64,000 bases of DNA from a phage: the NCBI GenBank assembly GCA_024613925.1, contig GCA_024613925.1_4713.1. The stretch is one strand, 5' to 3'. A program made the position numbers and the translations under genes. This document shows, piece by piece, positions 4,600-63,473 of this stretch; position 1 is the stretch's first letter, and each line of letters begins with the position of its first letter. The notes under the pieces were generated by a model, which made no database searches, was not told the DNA's origin, and saw only the letters and a program-made list of their open reading frames with translations.

Positions 4600-4625
4600 T
4601 ACCACAAAGGTAATATAAGCGTGAA
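4600..4625 (-). promoter_or_regulatory. early-promoter-like motif (minus-strand TATATTACCTTTGTGG)
   Basis: One of four near-identical copies of ..TATATTACCT(A/T).G..TG preceded by an A/T tract; resembles recalled phiKZ early promoter consensus TATATTAC. Confidence 0.45.
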
Positions 4626-4640
4626 TAATTTTGGATTCCG

Positions 4641-9879: not shown

Positions 9880-9905
9880 ATCACCTAAGTAATATAGCCG
9901 TGAAA
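9880..9905 (-). promoter_or_regulatory. early-promoter-like motif (minus-strand GGCTATATTACTTAGGTG)
   Basis: Second copy of conserved TATATTAC-containing ~25-nt motif, upstream of gene 9331..9795. Confidence 0.45.
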
Positions 9906-9914
9906 AATGTTGGA

Positions 9915-11448: not shown

Positions 11449-11685
11449 TTAGCAATGGTTGTTAGTTGCTTCTATTTCGTCAAGATACGGTTCTACGTCA
11501 TCGCCCTCCACGAATTCGTTGAACCAACAGTCAATGGTAGAAATAACCGGCGACTGGTGTTCACATTTCTTAGATACCTTAAAAGGTACGTTATTATCCA
11601 TCATACCGAGTTCGGGTCGAAAACGCCCGAAATGTTTCGCAGTCCAAATATCTGGGACGATATGGTTGTTCATCGTAGTGTTCAG
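11449..11685 (-). CDS. RNA polymerase beta-prime N-terminal fragment (non-virion RNAP candidate), proposed exon 3
   Basis: Translation LNTTMNNHIVP.. resembles beta-prime segment (A)LMMSTNNILSP downstream of NADFDGD; in-frame stop 3 codons upstream of the track ATG and no need for own start if spliced to mini-exon; G of track ATG proposed as intron terminal G. Confidence 0.4.
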   Translation of the reverse strand: MNTTMNNHIVPDIWTAKHFGRFRPELGMMDNNVPFKVSKKCEHQSPVISTIDCWFNEFVEGDDVEPYLDEIEATNNHC

Positions 11686-12028
11686 CATGAGTCGCTACCT
11701 CATACCCGCAGCTTTACCTGCAGCTTCCGGTGTTACCGGAATGACCAGAATACATCTTATCCATATTCCAAATGGAACGTAGGACTTCCGCGCTGGATCT
11801 CGCTTGAGACCACGTATTCGTTGAACGTTCTCCTGAACGGAGCTTCGCTGCTGATCGAACATTGTCACGTACGGTAGGCGTCCCCGAAGGGATTGTCATT
11901 GAAGCCGCGTACATCCGCTACCTTGTTTCTACCTTATCGGTTCCTCTTACGAGGCGTAGCGGCCTTAGCCCTTCCCAGCAATTCACGGAATCCAAGCTCT
12001 TCCTTTCGGAAGGCAGGGCCTATGATTA
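11686..12028 (-). ncRNA. candidate group I intron B (second of tandem pair) in beta-prime gene
   Basis: Minus-strand elements in canonical order: P GAAUUGCUGGGAAGGG (~11966-11990), Q AUCAGCAGCGAAGC (~11846-11859), R GUUCAACGAAUACG (~11811-11827), S AAGAUGUAUUCUGG (~11743-11760); P/Q and R/S complementary (UUGCUG/CAGCAG; GAAUAC/GUAUUC); P9-like hairpin UCCGG-UAACA-CCGGA; 5' splice site pairing (P1) not found. Confidence 0.45.
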
Positions 12029-12041
12029 AGCGTCACCGTCG
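12029..12041 (-). CDS. proposed 13-nt mini-exon encoding (F)DGDA of the beta-prime catalytic NADFDGD motif
   Basis: Minus-strand CGACGGUGACGCU lies immediately after a G that follows the intron A S element; joined to exon 1 (..AAC GCA GAU UU) it reads N-A-D-F-D-G-D-A in frame; followed immediately by UAA. Confidence 0.4.
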
Positions 12042-12419
12042 CTGTTTATCGACTATATCTTCATCCTCGTTGCGAGGAGTCTCCCGTTTTGGTCTGTGTT
12101 TAACAGAGCCTACTCTACTCGACATCGCGTCTTTCGATAGTCTGTGAGCACACATCTTAACGAACATTCGTGGATTCCTAAACAGGTGAATGTTCTTGTT
12201 GAGATGCTTCGCTGCGGATTATTCCCGTCCTACCTCTTTTACCATATCCAGTTCATTACGCTGGCCCTCATCTGTGTCACCACGATGAGTTGGTGTGTAG
12301 TCCGATTACAGAAACTTCCCGTCAATTAGAGAGTTTTAACTATGTTCCTGTTACCAGAAACCAGATCCCGACGGTATCAATAAATCAACGTAAGTTATTG
12401 AATTTATTGAAAAAAACTG
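12042..12419 (-). ncRNA. candidate group I intron A in beta-prime gene, inserted within the NADF/DGD codons
   Basis: Exon ends in U; internal guide-like GAUCUG (~12361-12369) can pair with exon end CAGAUU including U-G wobble; P AAUUGACGGGAAG (~12315-12329), Q AAUCCGCAGCGAAGC (~12207-12223), R GCUCACAGACUAUCG (~12134-12149), S AAGAUAUAGUCGAU (~12049-12066) in order; terminal G at 12042; 3' region after S is unusually short (no obvious P9). Confidence 0.45.
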
Positions 12420-13675
12420 AAATCTGCGTTATAACCTTTGAGGATCATCACGCTTAACCCGATGGTGTTATCCTGCGGATCGCGTTTAACCTTGGTGATT
12501 TCAAGACATTGGTTACTGCTTCGGTCAAGTGATGGGTTTCGAACAAAACCACACACAATCCCATCGAACGGTGTATCAGCAATAAGCTCATCGTGCAGCT
12601 CGCTCATCATCGGATGATAATTACGGACATGTTCCGCAACGAACGCACGTGCTGCTCTCGGTGAATACCCACGATGGAATAGCTTGGATTGGATATGTTC
12701 TTTATTGGTTAAAGTAAATGGTGCGTATGGGAAATGCAGATGATAATAACGATGGTTCGCTGTTATCGAACTGATTACGGTACGCGTGGTGAATGGATGT
12801 AATGTACCTAATATGTTTTTACGTGTGATACCTTTCTTCTTACCGATGAACTCATCGAAAATCGCCGCATGGTATTGCAGCAGCTTCAATTGCACTTTCG
12901 CCATCCAGTTTTCTTTCTTTCTGGCGCTCAAAGGTGTTGTTGGATGATAGATGCTATTCAACGTACCGATAGCATCGATCGCACCTTCCATTTTGCTATC
13001 CGCATAACGACCGGTTGGCGTATTCTCGATAACGAACATCATGGCCGCAGGAAAGCTGATATACTGGCTGAAGAACTTATCACGATGGATACGGATGAAT
13101 TCTCGTAGTGTGTCAACTTTCTCCGTGTTCTTCGGTCCACGTAACGTCGGTCCTTTATACAAGATCTCCATGATGCGATCGAAGTTCTGTATAAAACTAT
13201 TTACGCCACGACGTATCCCGAATACATCGAATTGCTGCTCCAGATAGTTCTTGAGTTCGATGGGTCGTTTTACATTTGGACGGTAACTGGCATCAATGAG
13301 CCACGTCATCGTTTCAAAGCTTTTGATATTCAACTCGCTTGCCAGCACGAGATGGACCAACGGGTTAATGAACGCATCGATTCCTTCAGGAACGCGCGCC
13401 CAAACCGTCGAACGAATCTCTTGTTCTGCTGGGTAGGTTACAACCGTTTTACAGTTTGGACACACCGTGCCGAGCAGCTCACCACGATTGTAGAAACCAC
13501 AACCACATTGTGGTGTGATATCCAACGTATCGCTGGAGTAAACACGGGTGATAAAACTGTTTAATTTCTTCTTCTCTTCGACGACTTTTGTATCGTAATC
13601 GTTCAACAAAATCGGCGTAAAAGGAAGTTCTGCGAGCTGTCTATCGAAACTCACGATATCGAGCATGATGGCCAT
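12420..13675 (-). CDS. RNA polymerase beta-prime N-terminal fragment (non-virion RNAP candidate), exon 1
   Basis: Zn-ribbon CGCG..x13..CPNC like beta-prime N-terminus; GITRKNILGTLHPFTTRTVIS matches beta-prime [21 protein letters not shown]; unspliced ORF ends ...GYNADF-SFFQ-stop, i.e. stops inside the catalytic motif. Confidence 0.6.
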
Positions 13676-13717
13676 GGGGTATCTCCTACAAATGAAAAAG
13701 AACGTTAGGACGTATAA

Positions 13718-13741
13718 GGGAGGGAGGTTGCCCTCCCTCCC
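13718..13741 (-). terminator. hairpin GGGAGGGAGG-TTG-CCCTCCCTCCC downstream of chimallin candidate
   Basis: 10-bp perfect inverted repeat between stop of 13768..15663 and start of 12404..13675. Confidence 0.45.
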
Positions 13742-13767
13742 GTCAGATTACATCGAACGTTCTTCCA

Positions 13768-15663
13768 TTAGAACAGGTTGAATGCCCCACCCATGTTGTT
13801 ACCGCCAACATTCGGACGATCGCTACGTGCGTAGATGTTGCCGGAGATGTTACCCAGACCACGAGCACGTGCTGCCATGTTACCACGAACAGCGGTACCT
13901 GCCAGGTGCTGGATGTTCTCAGGACGGATGGTGAAGCCAGCATCAGCCGCAGCTTCGATCAGCGCCTGCAGTGCTAACGGATCGAAGTCGTAACGCATTG
14001 CCCAGCCGGTTTGTTCCCAGCTACCAGACAGAACACGATCAATGATTTCGTGACGAGCGACAACACGCTGAGACATCGTCATATCGGTACGGTCGAAGCT
14101 GTCTTCCCAAGCTTCTACGGTATCCGGGTTAGTGATGTTCATCATGTACAGATCGTCCATATCACGAATATCGTGACGGTGACCATCCTGGTGGTTGTAG
14201 TAACCCAGCGGGATACGGTTACCGGTAGCGTAGACCAGCGGTTGGCCGTATTGATATTTCTTGCTGAAGCAACCCAGGGTAGTATCATCGAAGGCACGGT
14301 AGAGTGCTTTGTAACCTTCGGAGATTTCTTGAACTTTACCGTCAACGTTGCCCGTAAAGATCTTCTCAGCCGCCGGGATCATACGCAGCAGCCAGCTATA
14401 CTCGCCTTCTTCCGGTACGTCGATAGAAATCAGCAGAGACGGATACAGAACCTGTTGCAGGAACTTGTAAATCTGCTCGTTGGTTTGCGTAGACAGATCC
14501 AGCGGTGCAGTCACTTCAGGATCCAGCACCATCGCCAGAGCACCTGGGTTATGCGGACCAATACCACGAGCCGCGTTGCTGATTAAAGACTGTGCCCATG
14601 CCATGCCGCTGTTCAGCGTAGCGATGGTACCAATCAGACCCAGCACGAAGCTGTTCGGTGTGAACGCATCCAGCTCCAGCGGGTAAACGCTGGTCATCAC
14701 GTAACGCGGCTGGTACTGTACAGTCGGCGGTACCGGATAGCCGTTAACCAGAACAGGGCCTTGGTTGAAGGTCGGGTTCTGCGGGCTGTAGGTCAGGTCA
14801 ATGTAACCGGTGGTGGCGACCAGACGCTGTTGACTATCGTAATCGCTCATCGCTTGACGGATGCGGTTAGAGATAGTTACAGTGATGTCAGAACGCACAG
14901 GGTTACCAACAATATCGCTGTCCTGCATACCGCTGGTGTTGTACTGAACGCTGCTGATTGGCTGATCGCTTGCCATCATGCCCAGGTTGAACTGCGGCAG
15001 ACCCAGTTTATCACCGAGACGGATTTCGATCGCGGTTTGGATTGCGTTATCTGCAGCAGACAGCAGGGTGGTTGCCAGATGCGCAGATTCAGCGGTGATT
15101 TCATTGGTCACCACAGCCAGACCAGCGATACGAACAGTACCGTTAGACTTACCGCCAATAGCTGAATACATTGCCGCCATGACTTCGTTGATGAACGTAC
15201 CGTTCAGGTTATCAACCCAGGTACGCGGTACCAGAATGTTACCATGCGGACCTTGTTCTTCACGACGCGGCAGCGGAGCCAGACCAGCAACCAGCGGCAG
15301 GACGTAACCGAAGAAGTGGTTATGATCACCAACTTTTGCACCGCTCATAACAACCAGGGTCGGATACGGTACGCTGTACTGGTTCGGGTCAACCGCAACA
15401 AAGATGAAGTCGTCTTTGAACTGGGTATCTTCCAGATATTTCTCCATCAGACGACGGAGATTCAGTACCTGCTCGGAGCCGGTATTACGGCTGATACGAC
15501 GGCTCAGTGTACGGTTGATCGTACGCATCGTATGAGTTACTTTAGGACGGTCGGCAAAATCTGCAGCGGTTTCCAGCGCCTCATCAGCACGTTGTGCGGT
15601 GCGGGTTTCAGCTGCACGAATTTCTACATTATCGTTACCGTTATTACGTACGTCTAAGCCCAT
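13768..15663 (-). CDS. chmA: candidate chimallin (phage nuclear shell protein, ChmA-like)
   Basis: 631 aa (the size recalled for chimallins); sits immediately upstream on the same strand of the beta-prime N-terminal gene, as phiKZ gp54-gp55; early-promoter motif and AAGAGGAA RBS upstream; assignment by size and synteny only, no alignment performed. Confidence 0.45.
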   Translation of the reverse strand: MGLDVRNNGNDNVEIRAAETRTAQRADEALETAADFADRPKVTHTMRTINRTLSRRISRNTGSEQVLNLRRLMEKYLEDTQFKDDFIFVAVDPNQYSVPYPTLVVMSGAKVGDHNHFFGYVLPLVAGLAPLPRREEQGPHGNILVPRTWVDNLNGTFINEVMAAMYSAIGGKSNGTVRIAGLAVVTNEITAESAHLATTLLSAADNAIQTAIEIRLGDKLGLPQFNLGMMASDQPISSVQYNTSGMQDSDIVGNPVRSDITVTISNRIRQAMSDYDSQQRLVATTGYIDLTYSPQNPTFNQGPVLVNGYPVPPTVQYQPRYVMTSVYPLELDAFTPNSFVLGLIGTIATLNSGMAWAQSLISNAARGIGPHNPGALAMVLDPEVTAPLDLSTQTNEQIYKFLQQVLYPSLLISIDVPEEGEYSWLLRMIPAAEKIFTGNVDGKVQEISEGYKALYRAFDDTTLGCFSKKYQYGQPLVYATGNRIPLGYYNHQDGHRHDIRDMDDLYMMNITNPDTVEAWEDSFDRTDMTMSQRVVARHEIIDRVLSGSWEQTGWAMRYDFDPLALQALIEAAADAGFTIRPENIQHLAGTAVRGNMAARARGLGNISGNIYARSDRPNVGGNNMGGAFNLF

Positions 15664-15727
15664 TTGGGATTCCTCTTTTCTTAAACTTTATTAAATGACG
15701 TCATTGAATCAGCTTCTACTCGCTCAT

Positions 15728-15752
15728 TCACCTAGGTAATATAACCCTGAAA
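15728..15752 (-). promoter_or_regulatory. early-promoter-like motif (minus-strand GGTTATATTACCTAGGTG) upstream of chimallin candidate
   Basis: Third copy of conserved motif, ~70-90 nt upstream of ATG at 15663; an ATGACGTCAT palindrome lies between motif and start. Confidence 0.45.
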
Positions 15753-15917
15753 TTTTTTTCAATATTGGTGTAACCACATTGAACGATATAAACCCCTAGG
15801 CGAACGCTGCCGAGAAGCAACATTCTTTCTACATATAATCAGGATATGTCTGTAAACTTTTACTTCTCTTATTGAGAGTAATGTCATATCCGTTTATTAC
15901 CTTCTTACGGAGTTCGT

Positions 15918-17012
15918 ATGTTTCGTGTTTTAAATAACCTCCCGCGAACATCATCGGGTGTGCAACCCGTCCCTCAGAAAGACTATCTAATACGCGAAGT
16001 TCAAAGAAACCTACAGACAATCCAGAACCACTATCAAGGTTTTACCTTCGCGGTTCAGAGCGATCACATCCTTGCGTTGCTGCTCGCACAGCTCCCTATG
16101 AGATACGACATCTCAGTACAAACTTACTACGACATGATTCTCGATCTTACCCCAGAATTGGGTAATCGTGTCAAGTTGACAACATCAAGATACGCGGGTA
16201 AGTTATTCGACGGTGCTTTCTATCCGGGATTGCACGAAGCTATTATCGCAACCGGTGAAAGTCGTCTTATTTCACGTGACATTCTTGACAACTGGCGTAA
16301 TTGGTCGCCGGTTAGAATCGTGACGCACCCGTACGCAAATCTTCGTTACATTCCTCTTCACCGAAAGCCGGTTGAAGAAGGACGAGGTTTTGCGGTCATT
16401 ATGGTTGATGTACCTTTATTAGCGCTACAGTATCGAATGTGGTCTTTGGTCATGGGTCATAACGTCGACGGTAAATGGGTGGTTAAAGAACCGGTTACAA
16501 GCTTCCTTGCGAGTTTTCCGTTGGTTAACGCATTATACTCACACAACGATGTTGTTATACGCAATCGTTGTTTATGGGTATCTCCGGCTAAGAATCCACT
16601 CAAATCACCCATTTACGTTAACGACCTTGATAACGTATTCAGCCAAGTCGTTCTGTCCGTACAGCATCATTTATTACGCAGAAGACGAAGCTACACCGAC
16701 ATGCTTAAACAGATACCGAGTTTATACGGGGATCAGTACCAAGCAACCCGAATGGGTTACACCGTCGATCTTCGACAAACACGATGGGCAAGGGATCTGG
16801 GTTGTCTGTCATTATGGCAACAACTCGTCACATTGCAAAACGTATCTGAAAGCGTCGGGTTCAGCAGTCAAGTCGATAATGACCTGTACCGTGCTGCCGA
16901 CCGGAGTCTAAAAGAAGGTAACTGGGAATCCTCTCCGTTACCTGGTGATTTAAGACGTGAAGTTATCGCACAGGTTGCCGACCTCTTAAAAATTCTTCCT
17001 GCTGGTGCATAA
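15918..17012 (+). CDS. hypothetical protein
   Basis: 364-aa ORF, GGAG 5-6 nt upstream of ATG; convergent with 17079..19232. Confidence 0.5.
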   Translation: MFRVLNNLPRTSSGVQPVPQKDYLIREVQRNLQTIQNHYQGFTFAVQSDHILALLLAQLPMRYDISVQTYYDMILDLTPELGNRVKLTTSRYAGKLFDGAFYPGLHEAIIATGESRLISRDILDNWRNWSPVRIVTHPYANLRYIPLHRKPVEEGRGFAVIMVDVPLLALQYRMWSLVMGHNVDGKWVVKEPVTSFLASFPLVNALYSHNDVVIRNRCLWVSPAKNPLKSPIYVNDLDNVFSQVVLSVQHHLLRRRRSYTDMLKQIPSLYGDQYQATRMGYTVDLRQTRWARDLGCLSLWQQLVTLQNVSESVGFSSQVDNDLYRAADRSLKEGNWESSPLPGDLRREVIAQVADLLKILPAGA

Positions 17013-17078: not shown

Positions 17079-19232
17079 TTACTCTGCGGTTTCTCGCTTC
17101 GGTAAATAACTTGCTGCGATGTCTTGGGCTAACAATGTATTGTTTTTATTCGAGATGAAAATACCGTAACTTTCCATTAACGCGTAATACGAACGAACGA
17201 GCGTAGAGATCAATCGACGAATATCCATACCTTGAATAAAGATATCAGGAAGCCCGGAGGCTTCGATCACCGGTAATGGTATCGTTAAGTTGCTTATCGT
17301 TTTCTTATCGTTACGTACAATCCAATCACGGAAACGTTGTTGTAACCCTTTATCCTCCCAGGAATCAATCCAATCGTTAAGAAGCGTTTTGTTCTTCGTC
17401 GCCAACGGCACACGAACCCCAACATAGGGTGGTTCCTGGCAATGGCCGTACGATTGAGCAAACACCTCTTCCCACATATCGTAAGACTGTTTCGTTACCG
17501 CAACATGTGGTTTCACTTTAACACGTGTTAAGAAATCAGGATCACCACGTTTCATGGACTCAACGATTTCGTTTTCTAACGAGATAATATCGTCAAGAAC
17601 CAATCGAATGCTGATCTTCTCATTACGTAACAGCTTATCCATGATACCGCACATCATGCGTTCAACACGTTTGACGATCATTTTTGGTGCTGACGCATCA
17701 CGCATAACCGGACCTTTCAATTCCAGCTTCGGTGGATTGATAGGAACCCCTTCACGCATGGTCATGTAACCGTAATAGTTTTTACCCATCGAGGTTAACG
17801 ACAGAATCAAGAACATATATTCGTTCTTCATTTCCATCACGTACATATGCTCTTTCGCTACACCGATATTACCAGAACACATCGCCATCAGATGAACCGT
17901 AATCTGCGTAACCAGATAGATAAGCGTGTTTGCTAAGCGCGTCGAAACTGGATTGATCTCCATATTTCCAAATCGCCACTGAACCCACTCCTGGCAGGTA
18001 AACACCGTCGAGTCGGTATCAGACAACACGCCCACTTCACGGATTGCCGACGGAAAAGCATAAACGCCAGCCGGTTGGTTCTCGGTACGCCAGAACGCCA
18101 TAATCAAGTCAGCATAACTTTGGATGCGTTGCAGCATTAATTTTGTTGTTGCTGCGGTAAGACGATAACCAAGCTCATTTCCTTTTTCTAGCGCTACGTA
18201 AATCGCTTCCCCATTCAAGAACTCCGTGCATTGTGCTGTAATCCAAGCGACCGTGTTGTTATCCATGGAAGCAATAATGGCTTTAGCCTCTTCCATCGTT
18301 TCAACAGGTTCGGATGCCAGCTCACACAACGAGTCAAGAAAATCTCGAACAAATTCAGGATTAAGCTCACGTAACGAGTACAGGTTATTGCTGTACATGT
18401 AGCAGGCGCGTTCCAACGGCGTTAAACCGGTAATTAACTCCCGGATAGTCAGTTCTTTCTCTGGGTCGAAAGTATACCGATGTAAGCATTTCGATACGTT
18501 AGCCCAAACCTCTTCCGGCGTAGGGTAATGCAGTTTGTATTTTACCATTACCTGCTCAATGGCTTTACGATCGCTGTTACGGACGATGCTTACGATGTTT
18601 TCAATTGCGATATCACAATCGTAATAATGGAAATTGCCCGCAAGGAAGCGTTCGTTGTTCGCATTGGCTGAACCTGAAGCACAGCGACATGTTGTCGTTA
18701 GACTCGGATGCGCAATCGGATTATAAAAAGGGTTGAACTTGGACGCCTGGGTTCCTGACAAACTGTTGTTGTCTAACTTGGTGTTGGTTTGTCGTTTATC
18801 GTGTAGCTCCGCTTCGTCTTTACGTCCGTGTGCTTGCGCTATCGACATTTGTTTCTTTTGTTTCTTACGCAACTTACCGTTTTCAACCGCAAAGTCGCTT
18901 AGCACACTGGAACGTGTTTCACGTGGATAACAGTTAGCCCACACCGGCGTGATAATTAAATTATTTTCTTTAATATCGTTGAAGTATTGGCTGAACTTGA
19001 TGACTTCTTTTTCTCGATTTCCTTCGGTACGCTGCGTTAGTACAAGGCAGTCGGGATCAACCATCCCGTATTTTCCACCAGGACGAACCGTTTCAAGAAC
19101 AAACTGCAACGCTTCCTGCTGAGATATCCCACGCATGCGCATTAAGAACAGGGTATAATCCTGTACCGCTTCTTTGGTCATATCCAACGTACGACCATAT
19201 CCGTTTTCATCGTAAAAGAACGGATTTTCCAT
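17079..19232 (-). CDS. hypothetical protein (717 aa)
   Basis: Long ORF; GGAGG 4-5 nt upstream of ATG; function not recognised. Confidence 0.55.
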   Translation of the reverse strand: MENPFFYDENGYGRTLDMTKEAVQDYTLFLMRMRGISQQEALQFVLETVRPGGKYGMVDPDCLVLTQRTEGNREKEVIKFSQYFNDIKENNLIITPVWANCYPRETRSSVLSDFAVENGKLRKKQKKQMSIAQAHGRKDEAELHDKRQTNTKLDNNSLSGTQASKFNPFYNPIAHPSLTTTCRCASGSANANNERFLAGNFHYYDCDIAIENIVSIVRNSDRKAIEQVMVKYKLHYPTPEEVWANVSKCLHRYTFDPEKELTIRELITGLTPLERACYMYSNNLYSLRELNPEFVRDFLDSLCELASEPVETMEEAKAIIASMDNNTVAWITAQCTEFLNGEAIYVALEKGNELGYRLTAATTKLMLQRIQSYADLIMAFWRTENQPAGVYAFPSAIREVGVLSDTDSTVFTCQEWVQWRFGNMEINPVSTRLANTLIYLVTQITVHLMAMCSGNIGVAKEHMYVMEMKNEYMFLILSLTSMGKNYYGYMTMREGVPINPPKLELKGPVMRDASAPKMIVKRVERMMCGIMDKLLRNEKISIRLVLDDIISLENEIVESMKRGDPDFLTRVKVKPHVAVTKQSYDMWEEVFAQSYGHCQEPPYVGVRVPLATKNKTLLNDWIDSWEDKGLQQRFRDWIVRNDKKTISNLTIPLPVIEASGLPDIFIQGMDIRRLISTLVRSYYALMESYGIFISNKNNTLLAQDIAASYLPKRETAE

Positions 19233-23621: not shown

Positions 23622-24602
23622 TTAGAAAAGCAAGAAACCGCTATTCTTCGCTTCTGCTACAGTTTCGTCACCGACTTTCGGTGCTTGTTGACGTGCGTTA
23701 CGGTGTTCGATGTAACGTTTCGCTTCGTCCGCGATTTGTTTGATAATACCCCCTAAACGATCAGTACTTAAAACAAACGACGTCGCTTCACGAATTGGGC
23801 TGCTTTCAGGCACAAAACCATCGCAGCTGTAAATAGCGCTAACGCCCATGACTTTTGTCGCGTCTTTCGGATAAAGCGTACAGAAAGCAATCGGGCTATC
23901 GTTCTCTTTCGTCCAATCGTATCCCATGAACGTATTCAGTTCGGTGATCGTTGGTTCCAAACCGGTAACACGTGGATGGTTTAAGAAGTTTTCCAGGTCA
24001 GCGCTGTCAAGACGGCGGTTCTCGCCAGAAAACAGAACACAAAGCTGGCTGATAACAACCTGCACGTCCAGGTTGACATCCTGCTCCGATTTCCCATTTT
24101 CGCCATTCATGTGATAGCTAACAATCACTGGACGTTTCAACCCTTCTGCAGCTGCCATCAGTCCTTTGAAGGTGCGATCGGCGTTGATCGTTTGACGCTC
24201 ATCATCGAACGAGGCAACGATGCAACACACCACACGTTCACCGCGTTCCAGCAGGTTAGCAACCAACGCAGGACCGGCAACAGAACCTGAACCACCGCTC
24301 AAACTAAAGACCACGATATTAAATTTACCTGGCGTATGCTTATTGAGAATACCTGGGATTTGTGAACAGATCAGTTCAGCGTTCTCGTCACGCTTCTTAC
24401 CAGAACCGTCTAACTCACGACCGGCTGCATCTTTAAAGATGTAAATATGATCGTCGCCCAGTGTGCTATCGCGTAGGTTAGCGCGGCTGGTATCGACATA
24501 CGTCATGCTGTGTAATCCTTTCGCGACTTCGCCTTCAAATGCCGAGCCGATTTCGCCACCACAACCACCGACAGCCCAAATATGTACTTGGTTCTCTTGC
24601 AT
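23622..24602 (-). CDS. phuZ: PhuZ-like phage tubulin (FtsZ/tubulin superfamily GTPase)
   Basis: 326 aa; segment FSLSGGSGSVAGPALVANLL matches the tubulin/FtsZ GGGTGSG-type signature and the PhuZ pattern YSLGGGSGSV.GP recalled from 201phi2-1; N-terminal IWAVGGCGGEIG glycine-rich loop; AGGAG RBS. Confidence 0.7.
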   Translation of the reverse strand: MQENQVHIWAVGGCGGEIGSAFEGEVAKGLHSMTYVDTSRANLRDSTLGDDHIYIFKDAAGRELDGSGKKRDENAELICSQIPGILNKHTPGKFNIVVFSLSGGSGSVAGPALVANLLERGERVVCCIVASFDDERQTINADRTFKGLMAAAEGLKRPVIVSYHMNGENGKSEQDVNLDVQVVISQLCVLFSGENRRLDSADLENFLNHPRVTGLEPTITELNTFMGYDWTKENDSPIAFCTLYPKDATKVMGVSAIYSCDGFVPESSPIREATSFVLSTDRLGGIIKQIADEAKRYIEHRNARQQAPKVGDETVAEAKNSGFLLF

Positions 24603-28572: not shown

Positions 28573-28873
28573 GATAGAAATCCTTATTGGTTGCGATTAA
28601 CATATTAAGTTTAAAAGAGGTTATGTTTTACGTCATATTCGATGTATGTATTAATGAATTAGAATACTTGTATTTTTAAGTGAGTATAATAATAGTAATA
28701 AACCTAAATTAATCTCTATTGCTTATTGTTCTATCTAAAGATAGTAAACAGATATAATGCTCCCCACCTCCCCATTCTCCCAAGTAATACTGGCCTACCG
28801 GCCCTCTCCTTTTTAAGGGAGAGAGTAAGCATTCAGTATTGCTCAAATGAATAAGCAAAACAGTATAAACTTA

Positions 28874-44739: not shown

Positions 44740-44762
44740 TCAGTTAGGTAATATAGACCTCA
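44740..44762 (-). promoter_or_regulatory. early-promoter-like motif (minus-strand GTCTATATTACCTAACTG)
   Basis: Fourth copy of conserved motif; overlaps stop codon of upstream gene 44760..45560. Confidence 0.45.
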
Positions 44763-50033: not shown

Positions 50034-51143
50034 TTATTTAGCGTCGTTAAAGTAAATATCAACAGCTCGTTCCGTTGCGTAGAGGAGACCAAGATTCACA
50101 GTCCCAACCACTTCCGGTGAACCGATGATACGGTTAGCGATACTGGTGCCACTGAAGATAGCATCAAGGGTGTGCCCGTCTTCGGTTTTGTTCACACCAT
50201 GACCCACGGAAGAGACAACGGATTTCGCTTGTGCTGCGAAGGTACCTTTATCACCCATCCCCGCACCAAGGTCGTAACGCATGAAAATACGGATAGCGAT
50301 CTGGTTCTCGCCTAACGGATTGCCGTCTATTCTCACGTTACTATTGTTGATACGCCCTGTTGCTGCCTCGTTGAGTTTCAGTTCCTTAACGCGTTTAGCT
50401 CGCGCTTTATCCGCTTCACCGACGAGCGCCGCCATGGTTTCACTCATATCCTCAATCTGAGCACGGTACAGTACATCGATCTGTACAACTTCACCATGAA
50501 CGTCAGCACGTGGGTTATACTGACTCATACGACGTAATGCTTCAACGGCTTCCTGACTCTCATCACTCAGATCGGTTGCAATCGGTTCTTCCAGTGTTGC
50601 AAGAATCGTTCGTGGTTCAACGTGATCACCGATTTTCACAAGACCACGAATATTGAGATGGGCGTCAACGATGAGCGTACGGCTCTTAATCGATGGTGTT
50701 ACGAGACGATCGGCAAGATTGTCGAAGATATACGAACTGTCCTCGTGCGTCTCTGGAATATCCAGAATACCGACAAGAGACAGCACACCTGCGCGCCAAA
50801 CAACCTGGCCTGGGTTCCACCAATCGCGTTTGAAATAAAGACGATGGAAAACCACCACATCCTGATCCTTAACGCGATCCCCGACTTTATAATCGGTAAT
50901 GAGATCGTGAGGATAATACTTACCTGGCCCTTTCCCGATTATCGTACCGAGCTGGAAAACCTCTTCCCCTAACTCTGGATCGTCGTATTGTATCGTAAGC
51001 GCAGTTTTGGTGACCTTCTTAACAACACCATCGCCTTGGGCGGCGGCCGCGAAGAGTTTACCAACACGATGCGCGATAACAGTCTCACCGCCGGTGCGCC
51101 ACGGTTGTACATCGTAACCCTCAGCGGCAATCATGCGGTTGTG
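50034..51143 (-). CDS. RNA polymerase beta subunit (virion RNAP candidate), proposed exon 2
   Basis: Track ORF 50034..51164 starts at TTG with no RBS; from HNRMIAAEG it resembles beta ANRALMGANMQRQ, then TGGETVIAHRVGKLFAAAAQGDGVVKKV vs [26 protein letters not shown], and GDKGTFAAQAKSVVS vs GDKMAGRHGNKGVIS (E. coli beta recalled). Confidence 0.5.
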   Translation of the reverse strand, partial: HNRMIAAEGYDVQPWRTGGETVIAHRVGKLFAAAAQGDGVVKKVTKTALTIQYDDPELGEEVFQLGTIIGKGPGKYYPHDLITDYKVGDRVKDQDVVVFHRLYFKRDWWNPGQVVWRAGVLSLVGILDIPETHEDSSYIFDNLADRLVTPSIKSRTLIVDAHLNIRGLVKIGDHVEPRTILATLEEPIATDLSDESQEAVEALRRMSQYNPRADVHGEVVQIDVLYRAQIEDMSETMAALVGEADKARAKRVKELKLNEAATGRINNSNVRIDGNPLGENQIAIRIFMRYDLGAGMGDKGTFAAQAKSVVSSVGHGVNKTEDGHTLDAIFSGTSIANRIIGSPEVVGTVNLGLLYATERAVDIYFNDAK

Positions 51144-51656
51144 CTGTATACCTATAAATACCAATCTCTTGGGCGAATTTAGTTCTTATTCAACATAATC
51201 GTACTATTACCAGAATAAGACTGAGATTAGATTGTTCAGATAAGGTCGTTAATCTTATCCCGGAGGCGACGATAGGCACATCACCTCCCGCTTGCGCTCT
51301 CACGCAAGAGCAGACTATATCACATCTCGTTTCAAACGGTGCTTCTTCAGCACCTCAACGAGAGTTCACTTCTTCCCAGCGCATCCAGCGCCATTCTCTT
51401 ATCCAAGGAGAATGCCTCACTCGAGGGGTACAGGGGGATGAATCCCTTAGTCGTTGAACCTTTACCTTAGAACGCTTCACAGCGATCCTTAGGTACTTGG
51501 CTGCGGATTGTCCTTAAGCTATTATCTGTTTTTATAACCATACCGTCTTTCTTTTCAGAATCCGTTTTGGTCGATAACAGCGATGGATGTCTTCGCAATT
51601 CAGTGAATCTCATCTACATGTCGCCACATAGACGGACCCTGCTATTAAAAGCGTTA
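51144..51656 (-). ncRNA. candidate group I intron in RNAP beta gene, inserted at conserved HDD/ANR motif
   Basis: 513 nt with no ORF; minus-strand P AAUUGCGAAGACAUCC (~51583-51602), Q AAUCCGCAGCC (~51495-51513), R GUUCAACGACUAAGG (~51436-51466), S GUGAUAUAGUCUG (~51305-51326) in order; UUGCG/CGCAG and GACUA/UAGUC complementary; exon 1 ends in U followed by UAA; G precedes exon 2; splice keeps frame (..DRDD-HNRM..); P1 pairing not identified. Confidence 0.5.
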
Positions 51657-54600
51657 ATCATCTCTATCAGCAGCAGGTACTGCAAGCGCCGACGTACTCA
51701 TTATTGACGAGCTACCATCCGTTTTCTCGTCGTAAGGTTTCGTTTCACCGTATACAGACACAATGTTTGCGTTAGGTGCGAGGTAAGCAGAAATACCTAC
51801 GTCCCCACTATCCTTCGTACCTTCGGATACAACACCAATGTCCGACTTGTCGTATTCACGATCGCGTGCGCGTCGAAGCGATGTCTTTGAACGACCCCCG
51901 ATACCGGTCATCGTCGCTTCTTCACCCTGCTTGATATCCAGCATCGGGTTGGTTTCATCGATTACGATGGAAGCGCTGTCGTCGAGAATCTGGTTCCAGA
52001 CGCTTACCGGACTGATTGAGATTTTCTGGCGGTTTCCTTGACTGCTGTTCTCATTCTGACGAATAGCGCCAACCAGATCCTTATACACCAACTCAGCGAA
52101 CTTATCGTACGTTTTAAAACGTTGGTAGTTCACATCGTTCGTGTTAGGTGCCCAATCATCCAGAAGCAGTTCGACGGCACGCAGTAACAACATGGCGAAA
52201 TCGGTAGGTTCTCCCATGTTCTGCAGCAACGTACGGCTTACCGGATCAACGAAAAGACGCTCCATGAGTTCAAGTTCGCGTAAATGGCGAACCTTAAGTC
52301 CAGCCCCATCGACAACGTTAAAATAGATATCTCGATTGTCAAAAGCGCCGCGAGCGTAACCAATGTAGTTACGGTATTCGTTAAACCCACCCAGCAACAA
52401 CGTCGTCATGCGATCGTCTTTACTGAAGATCAGACTTTCGTCGTCAAAGCTCACCGCGAATTCATCGGGTGCTAACCCCATACGAGAGCCGCGAGGTACC
52501 GTACGATAGTTCGCTTTAAGATGTTCTAATAACGGGGTAAGCCCACCCAGATAACTTAGAACAACACCGACCGGAATACGTACACCCATGAATTCAAGAT
52601 CGGCGGCTTCGATCGGCATCTTAGCCGCATTGATACCGAAGAAATCAGGGAACGTCCCTACAGGTGTTGGTGTTTGTCCTGACTGACAGATATAGAGCTG
52701 ATTGCGTTTATCGATTGCTAAGAATTCACCCAGCGTGTTACGCGCAAACGTCAGGAGTCCTTCGGCTAACTGTTCGTTGAACCGATCTTCCCCAATGAAC
52801 TCCGGCAATGTCTTTGTATCGAGACGTATATCCCAATCAGCAAATTGGATTTGGGTATAGTTGCGTGCAAGCACAGCGAAGTAATACGGAACTTTGACAG
52901 CTGGATCAAAGACGTTACCACGTTTCAACGTGGTTAAGGGTGAGGACTTATCGTAATACATCGCCGTAAGTTGACGTGTTAGCCAACGACCCGCATTATT
53001 AACGACACGCTCTGAACGTTTAACAAACACCTTACCGTAGGCGGTACTCAACGCAACTTCAGATGACGATACCTTTCTAATAGGTTTATCAACACGTTGT
53101 TTACGCATCCGGTATTTGATGCCGTTAACGACATAAATGCCGTCCTTACGAACCTTCGGCAACATCACCGGGAACGTGGTCGGGACACCGCCTACAGGAG
53201 CCAGTTTAATCGTGATGACTTGATAATCCCCCATCACGTCAACAACATCTTCAACTTTATATCCCGTGACAGGGTAACCTGCCTGCTGTACCGCAACGAC
53301 GGCAGCTGCGATGTCCTTTTGCATTACGTGTTCAACGTAATGTTTATCCCACACCGCAAGCGTCGATTTACACAGGCTCTTATCGACGATAACATCCGCT
53401 TCCGGCATAACCTTTGCAGGCGCTAATTTTGCGGCTTTTGGTTTAACTTCAACATACTCAGCAAGTGTTAATCCAGAACCGTCGGGTGCTTCGATTTCAT
53501 GGATGGCGTCAGCATTACGCATCGCTGCTTTATATTGGACACCGCTTAACTGACCCGCATCCGCCAGATCGCTCGCGCGTACCAACACCGCATCCGATAA
53601 CGACTGAATATATTCGCCATGCGTTTTCGGTAACGTTGCCGCGTCAAAGACATCAACCTTTTCTTCTTCGGTATCGTCGGTAACGACTTCGAAGAGATCG
53701 TCGGTAATGTCCTGATCTTCATCGGGCTGGAAATCTGGTTGTACTTCTACCCCGGGTACTTCACGGACATCTTCGAACGAGCGTTCTACAATGGCGTTCC
53801 ACGCATCGGCATCATCGTCTTCATCCGACCCACCGACCAACTCCGCTTCTAACTCGTCGGGATCAAGAACGGTAGCGAGATCCTCACCGTTAGGAAGCAC
53901 GACGTCGCGATCATCATACTCCGCATCCGGGCTGTCCGCAAGAATATCTCGCTCTTGACGAAGAACCTGTTCCTCTTCTTGTTTCTGTTCTTCTTCATTC
54001 GCGCTCTGCGACCACAGACGTGTTACCGCCATCATCCAACGACGTTGGAAGGTTTCAAGTGTCGTTTTATCGAGTTCTTCCCCTTCCTTCACAAGTCCGG
54101 TACGCCATTCTTCCAGCAGGCCGAGATTCAGCGTAAAGAAGTACACACCGTCTGTAAATACGATGTTAAGCTTATCCAGCGTGGCTCTGTCTAACGAAGC
54201 CATCGTGCTGTTCTCACGATCGGTTCCCAACCAGCGGAAGAAGTCAAAGAACGACAGCTCCTCCGGTGTGGCGAAATTCATGAGGTTATTACGGGTCGGT
54301 GCCTGTTGCGTGGTACGCATCAACGAAATCTTCGGCAATGTTGACGGTATACGGAACAACAAAAAGTGTTGGCGATCGCTTTGCTGTGCGATTTCGTTGG
54401 CTTTCGACCAAATTGTTTTACGTACGTTGAACCATTCATCATACCAACGGGTGAGCGTTGGACGATAAATGTACATGTGGTTAAGATGCGCGTAGTTAGC
54501 AACGATCTGAGCGTTGATGTTTTTCTCCACCGTGCTTAGATCGGTAACCAAACGAAAACGACGATGTGATGCACGATAATCCAATTTCGCTCGTGGGAGT

Positions 54601-54863
54601 TGGAATCGTTGATCACGTCGAGGTGCACCCTGTTTGGTTGCGAGATCATCAGCAAACGAAATCCATAGTTGAGCACTTTCTTTACTCAGCATGTATTCGT
54701 TTTCTGGAGGACCTATCAATGAAGGATCCGTTGCGGTGTAATGATAGACAGCATAACGCGGCAGCTGCAATAGCTGCACTAAACGTAATCTTGGTGATAG
54801 TAACTCTTGGTAGCGTCTGACACCAAACTGTCGGTAGTAATCAAGGTATTTAAGTTTTGCCAT
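51657..54863 (-). CDS. RNA polymerase beta subunit (virion RNAP candidate), exon 1
   Basis: 1069 aa; C-terminal DETNPMLDIKQGEEATMTGIGGRS resembles beta Rif-region [24 protein letters not shown]; ends ..SALAVPAADRDD like ..ASLIPFLEHDD; AGLKVRHLRELELMERL resembles VGLVRVERAVKERL; GGAG RBS; long acidic insert. Confidence 0.5.
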
Positions 54864-54866
54864 GGG

Positions 54867-56513
54867 TTAGGCTCCACGAGGTCCCGTTAAGTTGCGTAAT
54901 AGGAACGCAACCGTATCGTAACCAATATCAATGTTGAATTTATTTTTACCACTTACCCAGAAAGCTCGCTTCTTGTGCGAGTTGGTAATTTCGTCAATAG
55001 CTTCCATGGAATAAAGAACGTTAACCGAGACCGTATCACCGTCGAAGTCCGCCCCGAGGCCAGCTAGAAACACCTGGCCGACTTGGGTCGTTTCTACAAA
55101 TGACGCTTTCAATGACCAATCTGGGTATTCCCATGCCATATACCGATCGCCTTCTAACGGTTGCCAATCGACACCGAGTTCTCTTCTTGGCTTCGTGTTA
55201 ACTGTCGTCCGCACATAGCAGGTTAACGGTATAACTGATTGCATTCCCGATACTGGATAACGTGTCACCATCGCACCGAGTTTATTCCAAAGATGATAAC
55301 CGCTCAGATAAACCAATTCGCAGTATGTAACCGGATGAACATTAGCGCCAGGTTTGTTCAGCATCTCTGGGGGTATTTCACTCATGCCACGGAATAACCG
55401 AAACGAATCGTTGTTCACATAGACGAGGCAAAGATAACGCCCATTAACCATGATAGGTTCGTTACGCACACCAGGATCGCTTAGCGTGTTCAGTAAACGT
55501 TCGATACCGTCCCACGTTGTAAAGTCATCGATGGTATCTGGGTCTAACGTGACGCGTTCACGTTCCATCGTTTCGGTATCGATAAGCTCAGCTTCAGTAA
55601 CATCACGAACAAATATTTCCTGCAAAATCCCCGTACGTAATGCGTGCTGTGTGATAGGAAGAGCAGCCTTGCTCATCTGATATAGACCAAGTTGTACTGA
55701 TGTACACGAAGTCTGGTTCGGTGAGCCGAGAACCTCTGTAGTTGGGATGACAGCCGAAATAACGTTACGGGTTGAGTTCCAAACGCGACGTGAACCGAAC
55801 TTCCCTTGGAAGATCCCTTTCTTACCTTGGAACATATCCAACAACAAAGCGTAGATATCGTTGAATGTTCTCTGTAAGCTCCAGCGCTGGCCGTCGTAAA
55901 CGGGATCGGAATAATCTTTTAATCCATCAGGGACGGTGTTAGAAATTGCAAGGAAACGACGATACAACTCCGTGATTTCTTGCTCGCTTTCATACCCGCC
56001 TTCTTTTACTTCTATTTCACGTAAGCCTGCAGGTAATACCAGTAAGTGACGGGTCATCGCTTTGAACATGTTCTCTTCGACAACTTTAATTCGTAGCTCT
56101 CGTTGAGCTGAACCCGTTGAAACGAACTTGATATCCGCGACGTGTTGTGCAAAGAACCCGTATCCTGTTTGTCCTGTTAACGCATCAGACGCAACGAAGT
56201 CGCGTTGTTCAGGATCCCAACGAGCATACGCCTTTCCCGACATGATATCACCATAGAGGTGTTTTAGTCGAATGAGGCGGTCGTAAATGACAGGGTGCAG
56301 GATTTCAACCTTGCATTCAATCACCGCAAATCGACGGTCTCGATCTTCACTACCTGCACTACCAAAGATGGTGTAAGAATAGAAACCATCATCGTGGAAA
56401 TTACCGGTGCTTGGGTCACGAATGCTCATGCTCGTGATCTTGGGGAGAAAACGTAACTGCTGTTTATCGAGGTGTAAAATACTAATGTTAAACGGCTCTC
56501 TGACTTTAGCCAT
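54867..56513 (-). CDS. RNA polymerase beta-prime N-terminal fragment (virion RNAP candidate)
   Basis: Contains intact catalytic motif GADFDGDTVSV (NADFDGD family) and GKKGIFQGKFGSRRVWNSTRNVISAVIP matching [24 protein letters not shown]; track ORF trimmed to ATG (MAKVRE..) with GGAG 8 nt upstream; adjacent and divergent to giant lysozyme-domain gene as phiKZ gp180/gp181. Confidence 0.6.
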   Translation of the reverse strand: MAKVREPFNISILHLDKQQLRFLPKITSMSIRDPSTGNFHDDGFYSYTIFGSAGSEDRDRRFAVIECKVEILHPVIYDRLIRLKHLYGDIMSGKAYARWDPEQRDFVASDALTGQTGYGFFAQHVADIKFVSTGSAQRELRIKVVEENMFKAMTRHLLVLPAGLREIEVKEGGYESEQEITELYRRFLAISNTVPDGLKDYSDPVYDGQRWSLQRTFNDIYALLLDMFQGKKGIFQGKFGSRRVWNSTRNVISAVIPTTEVLGSPNQTSCTSVQLGLYQMSKAALPITQHALRTGILQEIFVRDVTEAELIDTETMERERVTLDPDTIDDFTTWDGIERLLNTLSDPGVRNEPIMVNGRYLCLVYVNNDSFRLFRGMSEIPPEMLNKPGANVHPVTYCELVYLSGYHLWNKLGAMVTRYPVSGMQSVIPLTCYVRTTVNTKPRRELGVDWQPLEGDRYMAWEYPDWSLKASFVETTQVGQVFLAGLGADFDGDTVSVNVLYSMEAIDEITNSHKKRAFWVSGKNKFNIDIGYDTVAFLLRNLTGPRGA

Positions 56514-56758
56514 GGAGACACTCCTCTTTACCACCACCGGCTGCGGCGGTATCATCTGAACACACGAGAGACGTAATGGGTGATGGCGTCACCCATCGCT
56601 TCCTTGCCTGATGCCAGGAAGTTATTAGGTTACGTGCCTGCTTGATAAAATCAAGCAGGCGATGTGTGAAGTTACGCTTCAACATTATCAATGCCGAAGG
56701 TAAGCTTCGTGCATCACGTTCCAACGTAACATGGGAACGTATCGAACTGGAGGTATAC

Positions 56759-63424: not shown

Positions 63425-63435
63425 TCATTAGTTAA

Positions 63436-63454
63436 GGGCGGGAGATTCCCGCCC
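63436..63454 (+). terminator. hairpin GGGCGGGA-GATT-CCCGCCC after giant gene
   Basis: 7-bp GC stem followed by TCTTCTTG. Confidence 0.4.
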
Positions 63455-63473
63455 TCTTCTTGAGGAATGTTAC

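Follow-up and report, generated by a model that had tools for sequence, protein, structure and literature searches.

A Goslar-like chimallin gene and its neighbour, an RNA polymerase beta' gene predicted to lose two group I introns

The 631-aa ORF examined here is, by its profile and solved-structure matches, the chimallin (ChmA) of a Goslar-like Escherichia coli jumbo phage, a well-studied and already known protein. We hold with high confidence the composite reading that chmA lies in a Goslar-like phage, has an early promoter, and adjoins a gene for the N-terminal part of the beta' subunit (beta'-N) of the non-virion RNA polymerase (nvRNAP), whose mRNA must lose two group I introns. The window is the whole 64,000-nt stretch that was analysed; its ChmA, gene order, promoter motif, intron anatomy and splice junctions are given in Table 1.

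Calling the chimallin from raw sequence by gene order and size is a clean positive control and brings no new chimallin biology. Hundreds of assemblies still list ChmA under 'hypothetical protein [Escherichia coli]' or under Salmonella entries, so the practical value of the call is annotation; the ChmA cluster has 249 members. The correction to beta'-N outweighs it, since the catalytic aspartates are missing from the GenBank model of Goslar (gp247 plus gp185), and work that expresses or models the Goslar nvRNAP beta' requires the 497-aa spliced product.

Table 1. Features of the chmA locus and its surroundings in the window
Feature	Position	Strand	Evidence
beta'-N exon 3, MNNHIVPDIW... to stop codon	11449..11673	-	spliced product aligned to phiKZ gp55
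79-aa ORF (Goslar gp185)	11449..11688	-	begins 5 codons upstream of exon 3, in intron d
Group I intron, site d, 355 nt, no ORF, P7.1 hairpin	11674..12028	-	Rfam RF00028 17.6 bits, E 0.03
Mini-exon, 13 nt, C GAC GGT GAC GCT	12029..12041	-	direct reading; intron-free alleles
Group I intron, site c, 378 nt, no ORF	12042..12419	-	Rfam RF00028 44.6 bits, E 9e-10
beta'-N exon 1 (phiKZ gp55 homologue), ends ...AAC GCA GAT TT	12420..13675	-	PHROG 2987; PDB 7OGP
Long hairpin with U-rich tail in the 92-nt chmA-beta' spacer	13696..13766	-	MFE -40.7 kcal/mol
chmA, chimallin, major phage-nucleus shell protein (incl. stop codon)	13768..15663	-	profile and solved-structure matches
chmA ribosome-binding site AAGAGGA	15671..15677	-	direct reading, 7 nt upstream of ATG
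Early-promoter-like motif AAAAAATTTCAGGGTTATATTACCTAGGTG, presumed virion RNA polymerase target	15729..15758	-	matches published consensus
Divergent family B DNA polymerase, jumbo-phage hallmark	17079..19232	-	Pfam PF20286 681.6 bits
PhuZ tubulin	23622..24602	-	PHROG 4733 E 3e-68; PDB 9PM9 733 bits; phiKZ gp39 3ZBP E 8e-29

The interrupted beta'-N gene

An earlier note on this DNA placed a beta'-N gene next to the 631-aa ORF. Its gp55 homology, position and strand hold, since the 423-aa ORF at 12404..13675 matches PHROG 2987 (E 2e-117) and PDB 7OGP (E 4e-62); the end at 12404 is wrong, and the ORF represents only exon 1 of the gene. Its stop codon (12404-12406) falls inside the site c intron, its last four codons are likewise intronic, and the unspliced reading ends in NADFSFFQ before the stop. 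The mini-exon completes the F codon and then encodes D-G-D-A, which holds the Mg-binding aspartates, and in alleles lacking the introns its bases join directly to the exon on either side.

Splice sites were placed from P1/IGS pairing together with the intron-free alleles. The predicted ligated exons read ...AACGCAGATTT^CGACGGTGACGCT^ATGAACAACCAT, where ^ marks a junction, giving the junction sequence ...GATTTCGACGGTGACGCTATGAACAAC... and the predicted junction-spanning peptide GYNADFDGDAMNNHIVPDIWTAK. The predicted product has 497 aa, with NADFDGD restored; aligned to phiKZ gp55 (7OGP) it scores 255 bits, where exon 1 by itself reaches 214, and runs ungapped through the junction and NADFDGD. 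Homology of the gp55 type and an intact catalytic NADFDGD are found together only in this spliced product. We infer that the beta'-N gene consists of exon 1, mini-exon and exon 3, joined by removal of two group I introns.

Three other gene models were tried and rejected. Splicing onto the ATG of the 79-aa ORF (DGD^MLNTTM...) needs a four-residue gap relative to phiKZ gp55 and an intron that ends in a base other than G. A 3' splice site after UAG (DGD^RLMLN) was initially plausible against the DGDQLM of Erwinia phage Huxley, but CUCAUG/UAUGAG covaries as an intron stem and intron-free alleles read DGDA^MNNH. With a single intron, DGD could not be encoded.

Group I intron evidence

Both beta' introns have the splice features of group I, namely a U.G pair in P1, pairing of the IGS and P10, and a terminal G. 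At site c, P1 is CAGAUUU/GGAUCUG, with the U.G at the splice site, and P10 is CGACGG/CCGUCG; at site d, P1 is GCU^UA/UAGGC and P10 is AUGA/UCAU. Synonymous changes in the exon at site c are matched by covarying changes in the IGS (CAGAUUU/GGAUCUG in the window versus CCGACUU/GAGUCGG in Goslar). The splice-site pair at site d of one related locus (L010) is C-G rather than U.G. In the multi-locus parsing the terminal G was preset by the parser and hence is no test there; elsewhere it was read directly from the sequence.

Against Rfam RF00028 both introns score below the gathering threshold of 50 bits (Table 1), and relatives score 26-47 bits; the site d match spans the full length of the model. 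A five-member alignment of the family found at sites b and d has 103 pairs with 98% of cells paired, and compensatory changes occur at 33 pairs, versus 8.2 +/- 2.3 in shuffled alignments and 1-2 in slid controls, with the P3/P7 pseudoknot included. For the core helices at site c, support comes from the Rfam alignment only.

Introns were also seen in virion RNA polymerase (vRNAP) genes, at the DFDGD loop of virion beta' in Goslar and at the DD site of virion beta in the window. The latter, the third intron of the window (51174-51656), scores 56.2 bits against RF00028 and passes the threshold.

Intron occupancy among Goslar-like loci

Across 22 Goslar-like loci, introns use four sites that all fall in a 26-nt stretch of coding sequence, and ten different combinations of occupied sites occur. 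Each of these beta'-N loci carries one to three introns, with 13-nt mini-exons between them, and no locus in the set lacks introns altogether. Site c is empty in L012-14, L018, L021 and L026, and site d in L012-14, L018 and L020-23; at these empty sites the sequence, ...GATTTCGACGGGGACGCGATGAAC..., is exactly that predicted for the ligated exons. When parsed, the exon series was identical in 22/22 loci. Explicit splicing of six loci, representing four arrangements, gave 497 aa each time and the same ...GYNADFDGDAMNNHIVPDIW segment. HNH endonuclease cassettes are variably present and of three kinds, two of them found in intron c and the third in intron a.

These comparisons bear on the alternative that beta'-N truly ends at 12404, as GenBank annotates it for Goslar gp247, and that the 79-aa gp185 is a separate piece of a further-split, unspliced enzyme. 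RNA polymerase genes of jumbo phages are indeed naturally split (PMC7598289), GenBank lists gp247 and gp185 as separate ORFs, and the ATG of the 79-aa ORF is preceded at 9 nt by GAGG. The DGD triad is nevertheless in neither ORF and occurs only in the mini-exon; the first five codons of the 79-aa ORF are variable and belong to a covarying intron stem; the intervening sequences are group I introns by their U.G splice site, terminal G, P10 and strong covariation; loci with different intron sets yield the same segment of the 497-aa protein; and the coding sequence is contiguous in intron-free alleles. We consider an unspliced gene very unlikely and retain the three-exon gene.

Two sites, which have nothing in common but the GCU exon triplet of P1, are occupied by one ORF-less intron family, a pattern suggestive of ectopic spread through reverse splicing. 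Whether mobile group I introns have a hot spot in the Mg-binding loop GYNADFDGDA of nvRNAP beta'-N is, in our judgement, an evenly balanced proposition. If it is, Goslar-like phages would offer a natural system for intron-mediated competition between co-infecting nucleus-forming phages. The intron polymorphism gives a route to asking if interference competition of the PhiPA3 gp210 type is general among such phages. In the literature that was searched, nothing on the beta'-N intron cluster turned up beyond general reviews and the studies of PhiPA3 gp210.

Source genome and gene neighbourhood

The window has about 96.5% nucleotide identity to Goslar and is colinear with it across all 64 kb, with 97.3% identity in the chmA/beta' region; the loci closest to that of the window are 98.5% identical. 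By this comparison, its source is a Goslar-like Escherichia/Salmonella phage. The hallmark of Chimalliviridae is the possession of two multisubunit RNA polymerases, with PhuZ in most members, and the window contains nvRNAP beta'-N, vRNAP subunits and PhuZ. The PhuZ ORF lies 7.96 kb from the chmA ATG, in agreement with the 8 kb given in the earlier note, and is near-identical to the solved chain 9PM9. The suggestion made there of a nucleus-forming phage is supported by the Goslar colinearity, the chimallin, PhuZ, and the nvRNAP and vRNAP genes.

Databases already contain the exact ChmA sequence, labelled 'hypothetical protein [Escherichia coli]' and listed in Salmonella entries, which could mean that the window is a prophage or other chromosomal region of a cell with a chimallin-like gene instead of a lytic jumbo-phage genome. 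The contigs carrying the exact ChmA, however, span about 235-240 kb, as a phage genome would, and no match was found among 5,426 complete E. coli genomes or the GTDB species-representative genomes. Published work interprets such contigs as virulent phages that came along when bacteria were isolated, and describes chimallin as conserved in Goslar-like contigs from bacterial assemblies (bioRxiv 2024.12.31.630880). Given also the colinearity with Goslar, we rate a cellular origin as less probable still than an unspliced beta'-N, and treat the window as phage genome.

Identity of the chmA product

The chmA ORF starts with ATG. Its product matches Pfam PF25677 Chimallin_Phikzvirus with 98.3 bits (cut-off 27) over residues 19-596, PHROG 4795 'nuclear shell protein' with E 2e-54 over residues 20-629, and PDB 7SQT, the Goslar chimallin, with 1400 bits, residues 1-631 aligning gap-free to 4-634. 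Matches to more distant chimallins were found at E 2e-22 (PhiPA3) and E 2e-11 (201phi2-1/phiKZ type). The earlier note had proposed a chimallin from size and gene order, holding that a lack of detectable similarity to chimallins would refute it. Similarity is instead evident in Pfam, PHROG and 7SQT alike, over essentially the full length; what had been missed is that the ORF is essentially Goslar's own protein. The gene order likewise proved right: the beta'-N ORF, a confirmed gp55 homologue, starts 92 nt downstream of chmA on the same strand, in the phiKZ gp54-gp55-like arrangement.

Nothing contrary to the chimallin assignment was found, and the null left open in the earlier note, that some other large jumbo-phage protein occupies chimallin's phiKZ position by coincidence of size and place, gained no support and is refuted by the full-length profile matches and the 97.5% identity to Goslar chimallin, making it the least probable of the alternatives considered here.

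With 16 of 631 residues changed relative to Goslar, the gene has 45 synonymous and 16 non-synonymous codon differences. Five of the substitutions are grouped at residues 436-445, and in the putative tail segments there are only G38D and Q39R (N-terminal) and V621G (near the C-terminus). No change in function is expected.

Signals around chmA

The early-promoter-like motif reported in the earlier note stands 66 nt upstream of the chmA ATG and contains TATATTAC at 15736-15743 on the minus strand. This 8-mer by itself is not enriched in the window (4 matches versus 1.9 expected, not significant), and its count was dropped as a promoter statistic. Also dropped was a 25-nt motif common to four sites, each on the minus strand upstream of a gene, because a 25-mer built from the same four sites makes a circular test. 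We therefore used the early-promoter consensus published for phiKZ and 201phi2-1, which is AT-rich with a TATATTAC core, TTTYARR upstream and GTG downstream (PMC7058600; early promoters are described generally in PMC7598289). Scanning the window with the 201phi2-1 consensus at up to 3 mismatches gave 3 matches versus 0.06 expected, one of them at 15729-15753, which bears out the motif as a presumed phiKZ-type early (vRNAP) promoter.

The spacer hairpin is far more stable than expected (z -5.3; 0 of 200 shuffles as stable) and may be a terminator, an attenuator or an RNA-stabilising element. Scans for sigma-70 promoters and simple terminators gave nothing above chance; the terminator scan missed this long hairpin.

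Proposed course of expression and assembly

Chimallin builds itself into a lattice that surrounds the replicating DNA of nucleus-forming (Chimalliviridae) jumbo phages. Expression timing and shell assembly of the window's ChmA would follow those of the Goslar protein. By that analogy, chmA would be transcribed early by the virion-packaged RNA polymerase from the TATATTAC-type promoter, and ChmA would be translated in the cytoplasm, as expected for a protein near-identical to Goslar's. Protomers would form tetramers through the N-terminal segment, and two C-terminal segments would link the tetramers into a flexible sheet. The sheet would become the phage nucleus around replicating DNA, keeping out host nucleases and ribosomes, with PhuZ placing and rotating it. 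The beta'-N subunit of the non-virion polymerase would function inside this nucleus, once removal from its mRNA of the two group I introns flanking the mini-exon had restored the catalytic NADFDGD.

Comparison with known systems

The nearest known system is Goslar itself, whose ChmA (YP_009820873, HOV27_gp246; 7SQT/7SQU/7SQV), annotated as nuclear shell protein, likewise has 631 aa, is 97.5% identical and differs by 16 substitutions. The flanking genes, the 92-nt spacer to beta'-N and the upstream promoter motif are all as in the window. For Goslar chimallin, cryo-EM structures, self-assembly, the role in the shell formed around phage DNA during infection and that of the tail segments have been published (PMC9365700).

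The chimallins of the Pseudomonas phages phiKZ, PhiPA3 and 201phi2-1 have low identity to that of the window (E 2e-22 to 2e-11). In these phages we take chimallin to precede beta'-N on the same strand, going by gene numbering (phiKZ gp54-gp55, PhiPA3 gp53-gp54, 201phi2-1 gp105/gp107), and 201phi2-1 gp107 and PhiPA3 gene 054 were compared here as homologues of the window's beta'-N. The early-promoter consensus with TATATTAC is common to the Pseudomonas phages and the window (PMC7058600). The beta'-N genes differ, being uninterrupted across DFDGD in the Pseudomonas phages, whereas 22/22 Goslar-like loci have 1-3 introns there.

The PhiPA3 gp210 intron, a mobile group I element, interrupts the gene for vRNAP beta, and interference competition has been shown for gp210 (Birkholz et al. 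2024, PMC11620839). The introns described here resemble it in being group I, whether or not they carry an HNH homing endonuclease, and in lying beside acidic residues at the catalytic centre of an RNA polymerase encoded by a chimallivirus, and the window's vRNAP beta intron, after ...DRDD (residue about 1069), apparently occupies the same site. In contrast to it, the introns adjoining chmA are in the non-virion beta', tandem and, in the window, ORF-less, with 13-nt mini-exons, and the beta'-N introns of Goslar-like loci use four alternative sites.

Self-splicing group I introns are present in the T4 genes td, nrdB and sunY. The nrdE gene of Staphylococcus phage Twort is a multi-intron phage gene (PMC113830). 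Shared with the Twort nrdE and T4 types are P7.1-type extensions, location at conserved catalytic codons of essential genes, and HNH endonucleases in some introns; unlike those, the Goslar-like loci carry up to three introns within 26 nt, in ten patterns among near-identical genomes.

Identity of the shell protein gene

The earlier note had proposed, from size and gene order, that the 631-aa ORF encodes a chimallin (ChmA), the phage-nucleus shell protein, and this call is correct. The protein scores 98.3 bits against Pfam Chimallin_Phikzvirus (PF25677) over residues 19-596 (curated cut-off, 27 bits) and matches PHROG 4795 'nuclear shell protein' over residues 20-629 (E 2e-54). A search of solved structures aligned it end to end with the chimallin of Escherichia phage vB_EcoM_Goslar (NC_048170; structures 7SQT/7SQU/7SQV; 1400 bits), with weaker matches to the PhiPA3 shell protein (E 2e-22) and to chimallin chains 8IGG and 7SQQ (E 2e-11). 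The Goslar record lists its homologue, YP_009820873, as a nuclear shell protein.

The window is colinear with Goslar over its full length at ~96.5% identity, and the DNA of the chmA-beta' locus is 97.3% identical; the closest retrieved locus reaches 98.5% nucleotide identity to the window. The two ChmA proteins differ at 16 of 631 residues, and since the codon differences comprise 45 synonymous and 16 non-synonymous, the comparison indicates purifying selection on chmA. Five substitutions (Y436F, K439N, E441D, E443K, R445Q) fall within residues 436-445 (14335-14364, minus strand), a cluster common to the related locus L010; this segment may be a variable surface loop. Elsewhere, a small indel against Goslar (roughly 78 nt against 20 nt) lies at ~28.6-28.7 kb (28633-28712), and identity falls to 93.5% at 55200-64000, over a large tail-fibre/lysozyme-domain gene region (56642..63424, plus strand).

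The exact ChmA sequence is public as 'hypothetical protein' [Escherichia coli], and also from assemblies of Salmonella isolates; the contigs measure about 235-240 kb. It falls in a 249-member cluster at 90% identity. This fits the reported persistence of Goslar-like virulent phages in bacterial isolates: ~60 such phages were described, nearly all out of bacterial assemblies, with chimallin in 59 of 60 (preprint, bioRxiv 2024.12.31.630880).

Gene layout and early-promoter motif

The layout around chmA (see the feature table) is accurate as first described, and the PhuZ gene placed ~8 kb away is borne out by PHROG 4733 (E 3e-68), phiKZ gp39 (E 8e-29) and a near-identical solved chain (9PM9). Upstream of chmA, 254 nt of intergenic sequence precede a divergently oriented ORF. 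The 92-nt spacer downstream holds a very stable long hairpin (13696-13766, minus strand; -40.7 kcal/mol, z -5.3) with a U-rich tail after it. This element may act as a terminator or attenuator downstream of chmA, which is highly expressed, or it may stabilise the mRNA.

Coordinates of features in the window
Feature	Coordinates	Strand	Remarks
chmA	13768..15663	-	631 aa, ATG start
Ribosome-binding site		-	AAGAGGA, 7 nt 5' of chmA ATG
423-aa ORF	12404..13675	-	begins 92 nt downstream of chmA
beta'-N exon 1	13675..12420	-	1256 nt
Intron c	12419..12042	-	378 nt, without ORF
Mini-exon (DGDA)	12041..12029	-	13 nt
Intron d	12028..11674	-	355 nt, without ORF
beta'-N exon 3	11673..11449	-	225 nt
364-aa ORF	15918..17012	+	divergent neighbour upstream of chmA
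Divergent family B DNA polymerase	17079..19232	-	PF20286, 681.6 bits; beyond 364-aa ORF
PhuZ	23622..24602	-	7.96 kb from chmA start
Other extended motif copies, AAMAWWNTTSASGNYTATATTACYT	4608-4632, 9882-9911, 44741-44770	-	intergenic, 5' of minus-strand genes
vRNAP beta intron	51656..51174	-	483 nt; Rfam group I, 56.2 bits, above gathering threshold

The early-promoter-like motif reported upstream of chmA holds by a different measure. Its core, TATATTAC, which the 201phi2-1 early-promoter consensus has in common with phiKZ (PMC7058600 Table 2), occurs four times in the window versus 1.9 expected, which alone is not significant. All four copies are on the minus strand, 5' of genes, and have in common a 25-nt extended motif that is circular as a test because it was built from these sites. 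The published 201phi2-1 consensus is an independent test, and with up to three mismatches it gives three matches versus 0.06 expected, among them 15729-15753. Reviews describe AT-rich motifs of this kind as the early promoters from which the virion RNA polymerase (vRNAP) transcribes (PMC7598289). From the consensus match and this role it is reasonable to infer that chmA would be transcribed early.

The beta'-N gene model

The adjacent same-strand gene is, as proposed, a clear homologue of phiKZ gp55, the N-terminal beta' subunit (beta'-N) of the non-virion RNA polymerase (nvRNAP) (PHROG 2987, E 2e-117; PDB 7OGP, E 4e-62), but it is intron-split: the 423-aa ORF ends in GYNADFSFFQ, breaking off within the universal catalytic motif NADFDGD. 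An Rfam group I intron follows directly (12042-12367, 44.6 bits, E 9e-10), then a weaker, full-length match (11725-12039, 17.6 bits, E 0.03), both scoring lower than the Rfam gathering score of 50 bits. Between them lies C GAC GGT GAC GCT, the only place encoding DGD. The true beta'-N product is predicted to be 497 aa long, with two ORF-less group I introns around a DGDA mini-exon. The Goslar GenBank annotation (gp247, 423 aa, and gp185, 79 aa) lacks the catalytic aspartates, as does the ORF first read here.

Relatives with sites c and d empty read GAT TTC GAC GGG GAC GCG ATG AAC AAC CAT, the very sequence predicted for the ligated exons, and the spliced protein aligns with phiKZ gp55 ungapped across NADFDGD-AMNNHIVPD, the score increasing from 214 to 255 bits. 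The guide sequence of intron c, 5'-CCGUCG-GGAUCUG, pairs with the 3' exon CGACGG (P10) and the 5' exon CAGAUUU (P1), where a U.G wobble marks the point of cleavage. Synonymous changes in the Goslar exon (CCGACUU) are matched by its guide sequence GAGUCGG, giving two fully compensatory exon-intron changes. Intron d forms P1 (GCU-UA/UAGGC) and P10 (AUGA/UCAU). In an alignment of five family members, 78-97% identical, 98% of cells pair and 33 of 103 pairs show compensatory changes (8.2 +/- 2.3 in shuffles, 1-2 in slid controls); the covarying structure takes in the P3/P7 pseudoknot and the P7.1 hairpin.

Intron occupancy and endonuclease cassettes

We compared 22 loci, not necessarily independent isolates: the window and 21 relatives (Goslar, IMG/VR contigs, metagenome contigs and contigs encoding identical ChmA). 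The same exon parse applies to all 22, and explicit splicing of six, representing four arrangements, yields a 497-aa protein with an identical junction segment. Four intron sites lie within 26 nt of coding sequence (GYNADFDGDA codons; 12029-12435 in the window), in ten occupancy combinations; intron-free beta'-N was found in 0 of 22 loci.

Intron sites in beta'-N and their occupancy (L numbers, related loci; brackets, endonuclease gene)
Site or combination	Position or loci
Site a	after GGG T, G/Y boundary
Site b	after AAY GCN, between NA and DF
Site c	after GAY TT, between DF and DGD
Site d	after GAY GCN, between DGDA and MNNH
c+d	window, L028, L029
c[HNH]+d	Goslar, L024
b+d	L010
a+c+d	L011, L015, L016, L017, L019, L027
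b	L012-L014
a[HEG]	L018
a+c	L020
a	L021, L026
c	L022, L025
a+c[second HNH]	L023

A U precedes every 5' splice site except site d of L010, where it is C. Sites b and d hold the same ORF-less intron family, and the only exon part they have in common is the triplet GCU used in P1; the sequences suggest ectopic spread of this family, possibly by reverse splicing.

Some intron copies carry an HNH/I-HmuI-like endonuclease cassette, of which there are three distinct kinds. The Goslar gp186 HNH gene (HNH_3 and NUMOD1 domains) sits in a 1065-nt cassette that a 14-bp stem closes off, immediately 5' of the intron c terminal G, whereas intron c of the window is the ORF-less form (cassette spot, 12043-12046). 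At this position L023 has a different HNH ORF, enclosed in a 12-bp stem, and in L018 the P1 loop of intron a holds an I-HmuI-like ORF.

Comparison with known systems

The ChmA allele here is nearly identical to a protein whose structures have been solved and is therefore already known; for Goslar chimallin the structure, the in situ lattice and self-assembly through the tails are published (PMC9365700). The chimallin finding as posed is of low interest; the beta'-N introns are moderately interesting and directly testable. The Goslar record annotates one Intron_gpI feature beside gp247; open-access papers and bioRxiv yielded no account of the second intron, DGD mini-exon, 497-aa product or four-site polymorphism.

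HNH-endonuclease introns in chimallivirus RNA polymerase genes are already known from PhiPA3 gp210 (PMC11620839). In the window, vRNAP beta is split after ADRDD into ORFs 51654..54863 and 50034..51164, whereas no intron interrupts Goslar gp207 at this point. Judged by residue number and sequence context, the window's intron appears to share its site with the PhiPA3 gp210 intron. Conversely, Goslar vRNAP beta'-N is split between GGD and FDGD by an intron carrying gp206 (NC_048170 211577-215306), while that of the window (54867..56555, minus strand, 562 aa) is uninterrupted, reading GADFDGDTVSV. Exon sequence near the Goslar insertion site is more diverged. Introns thus target the catalytic loop in both of the phage RNA polymerases, nvRNAP and vRNAP. 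In other chimalliviruses beta'-N runs uninterrupted across the NADFDGD motif, whereas all 22 Goslar-like loci compared here carry one to three introns there.
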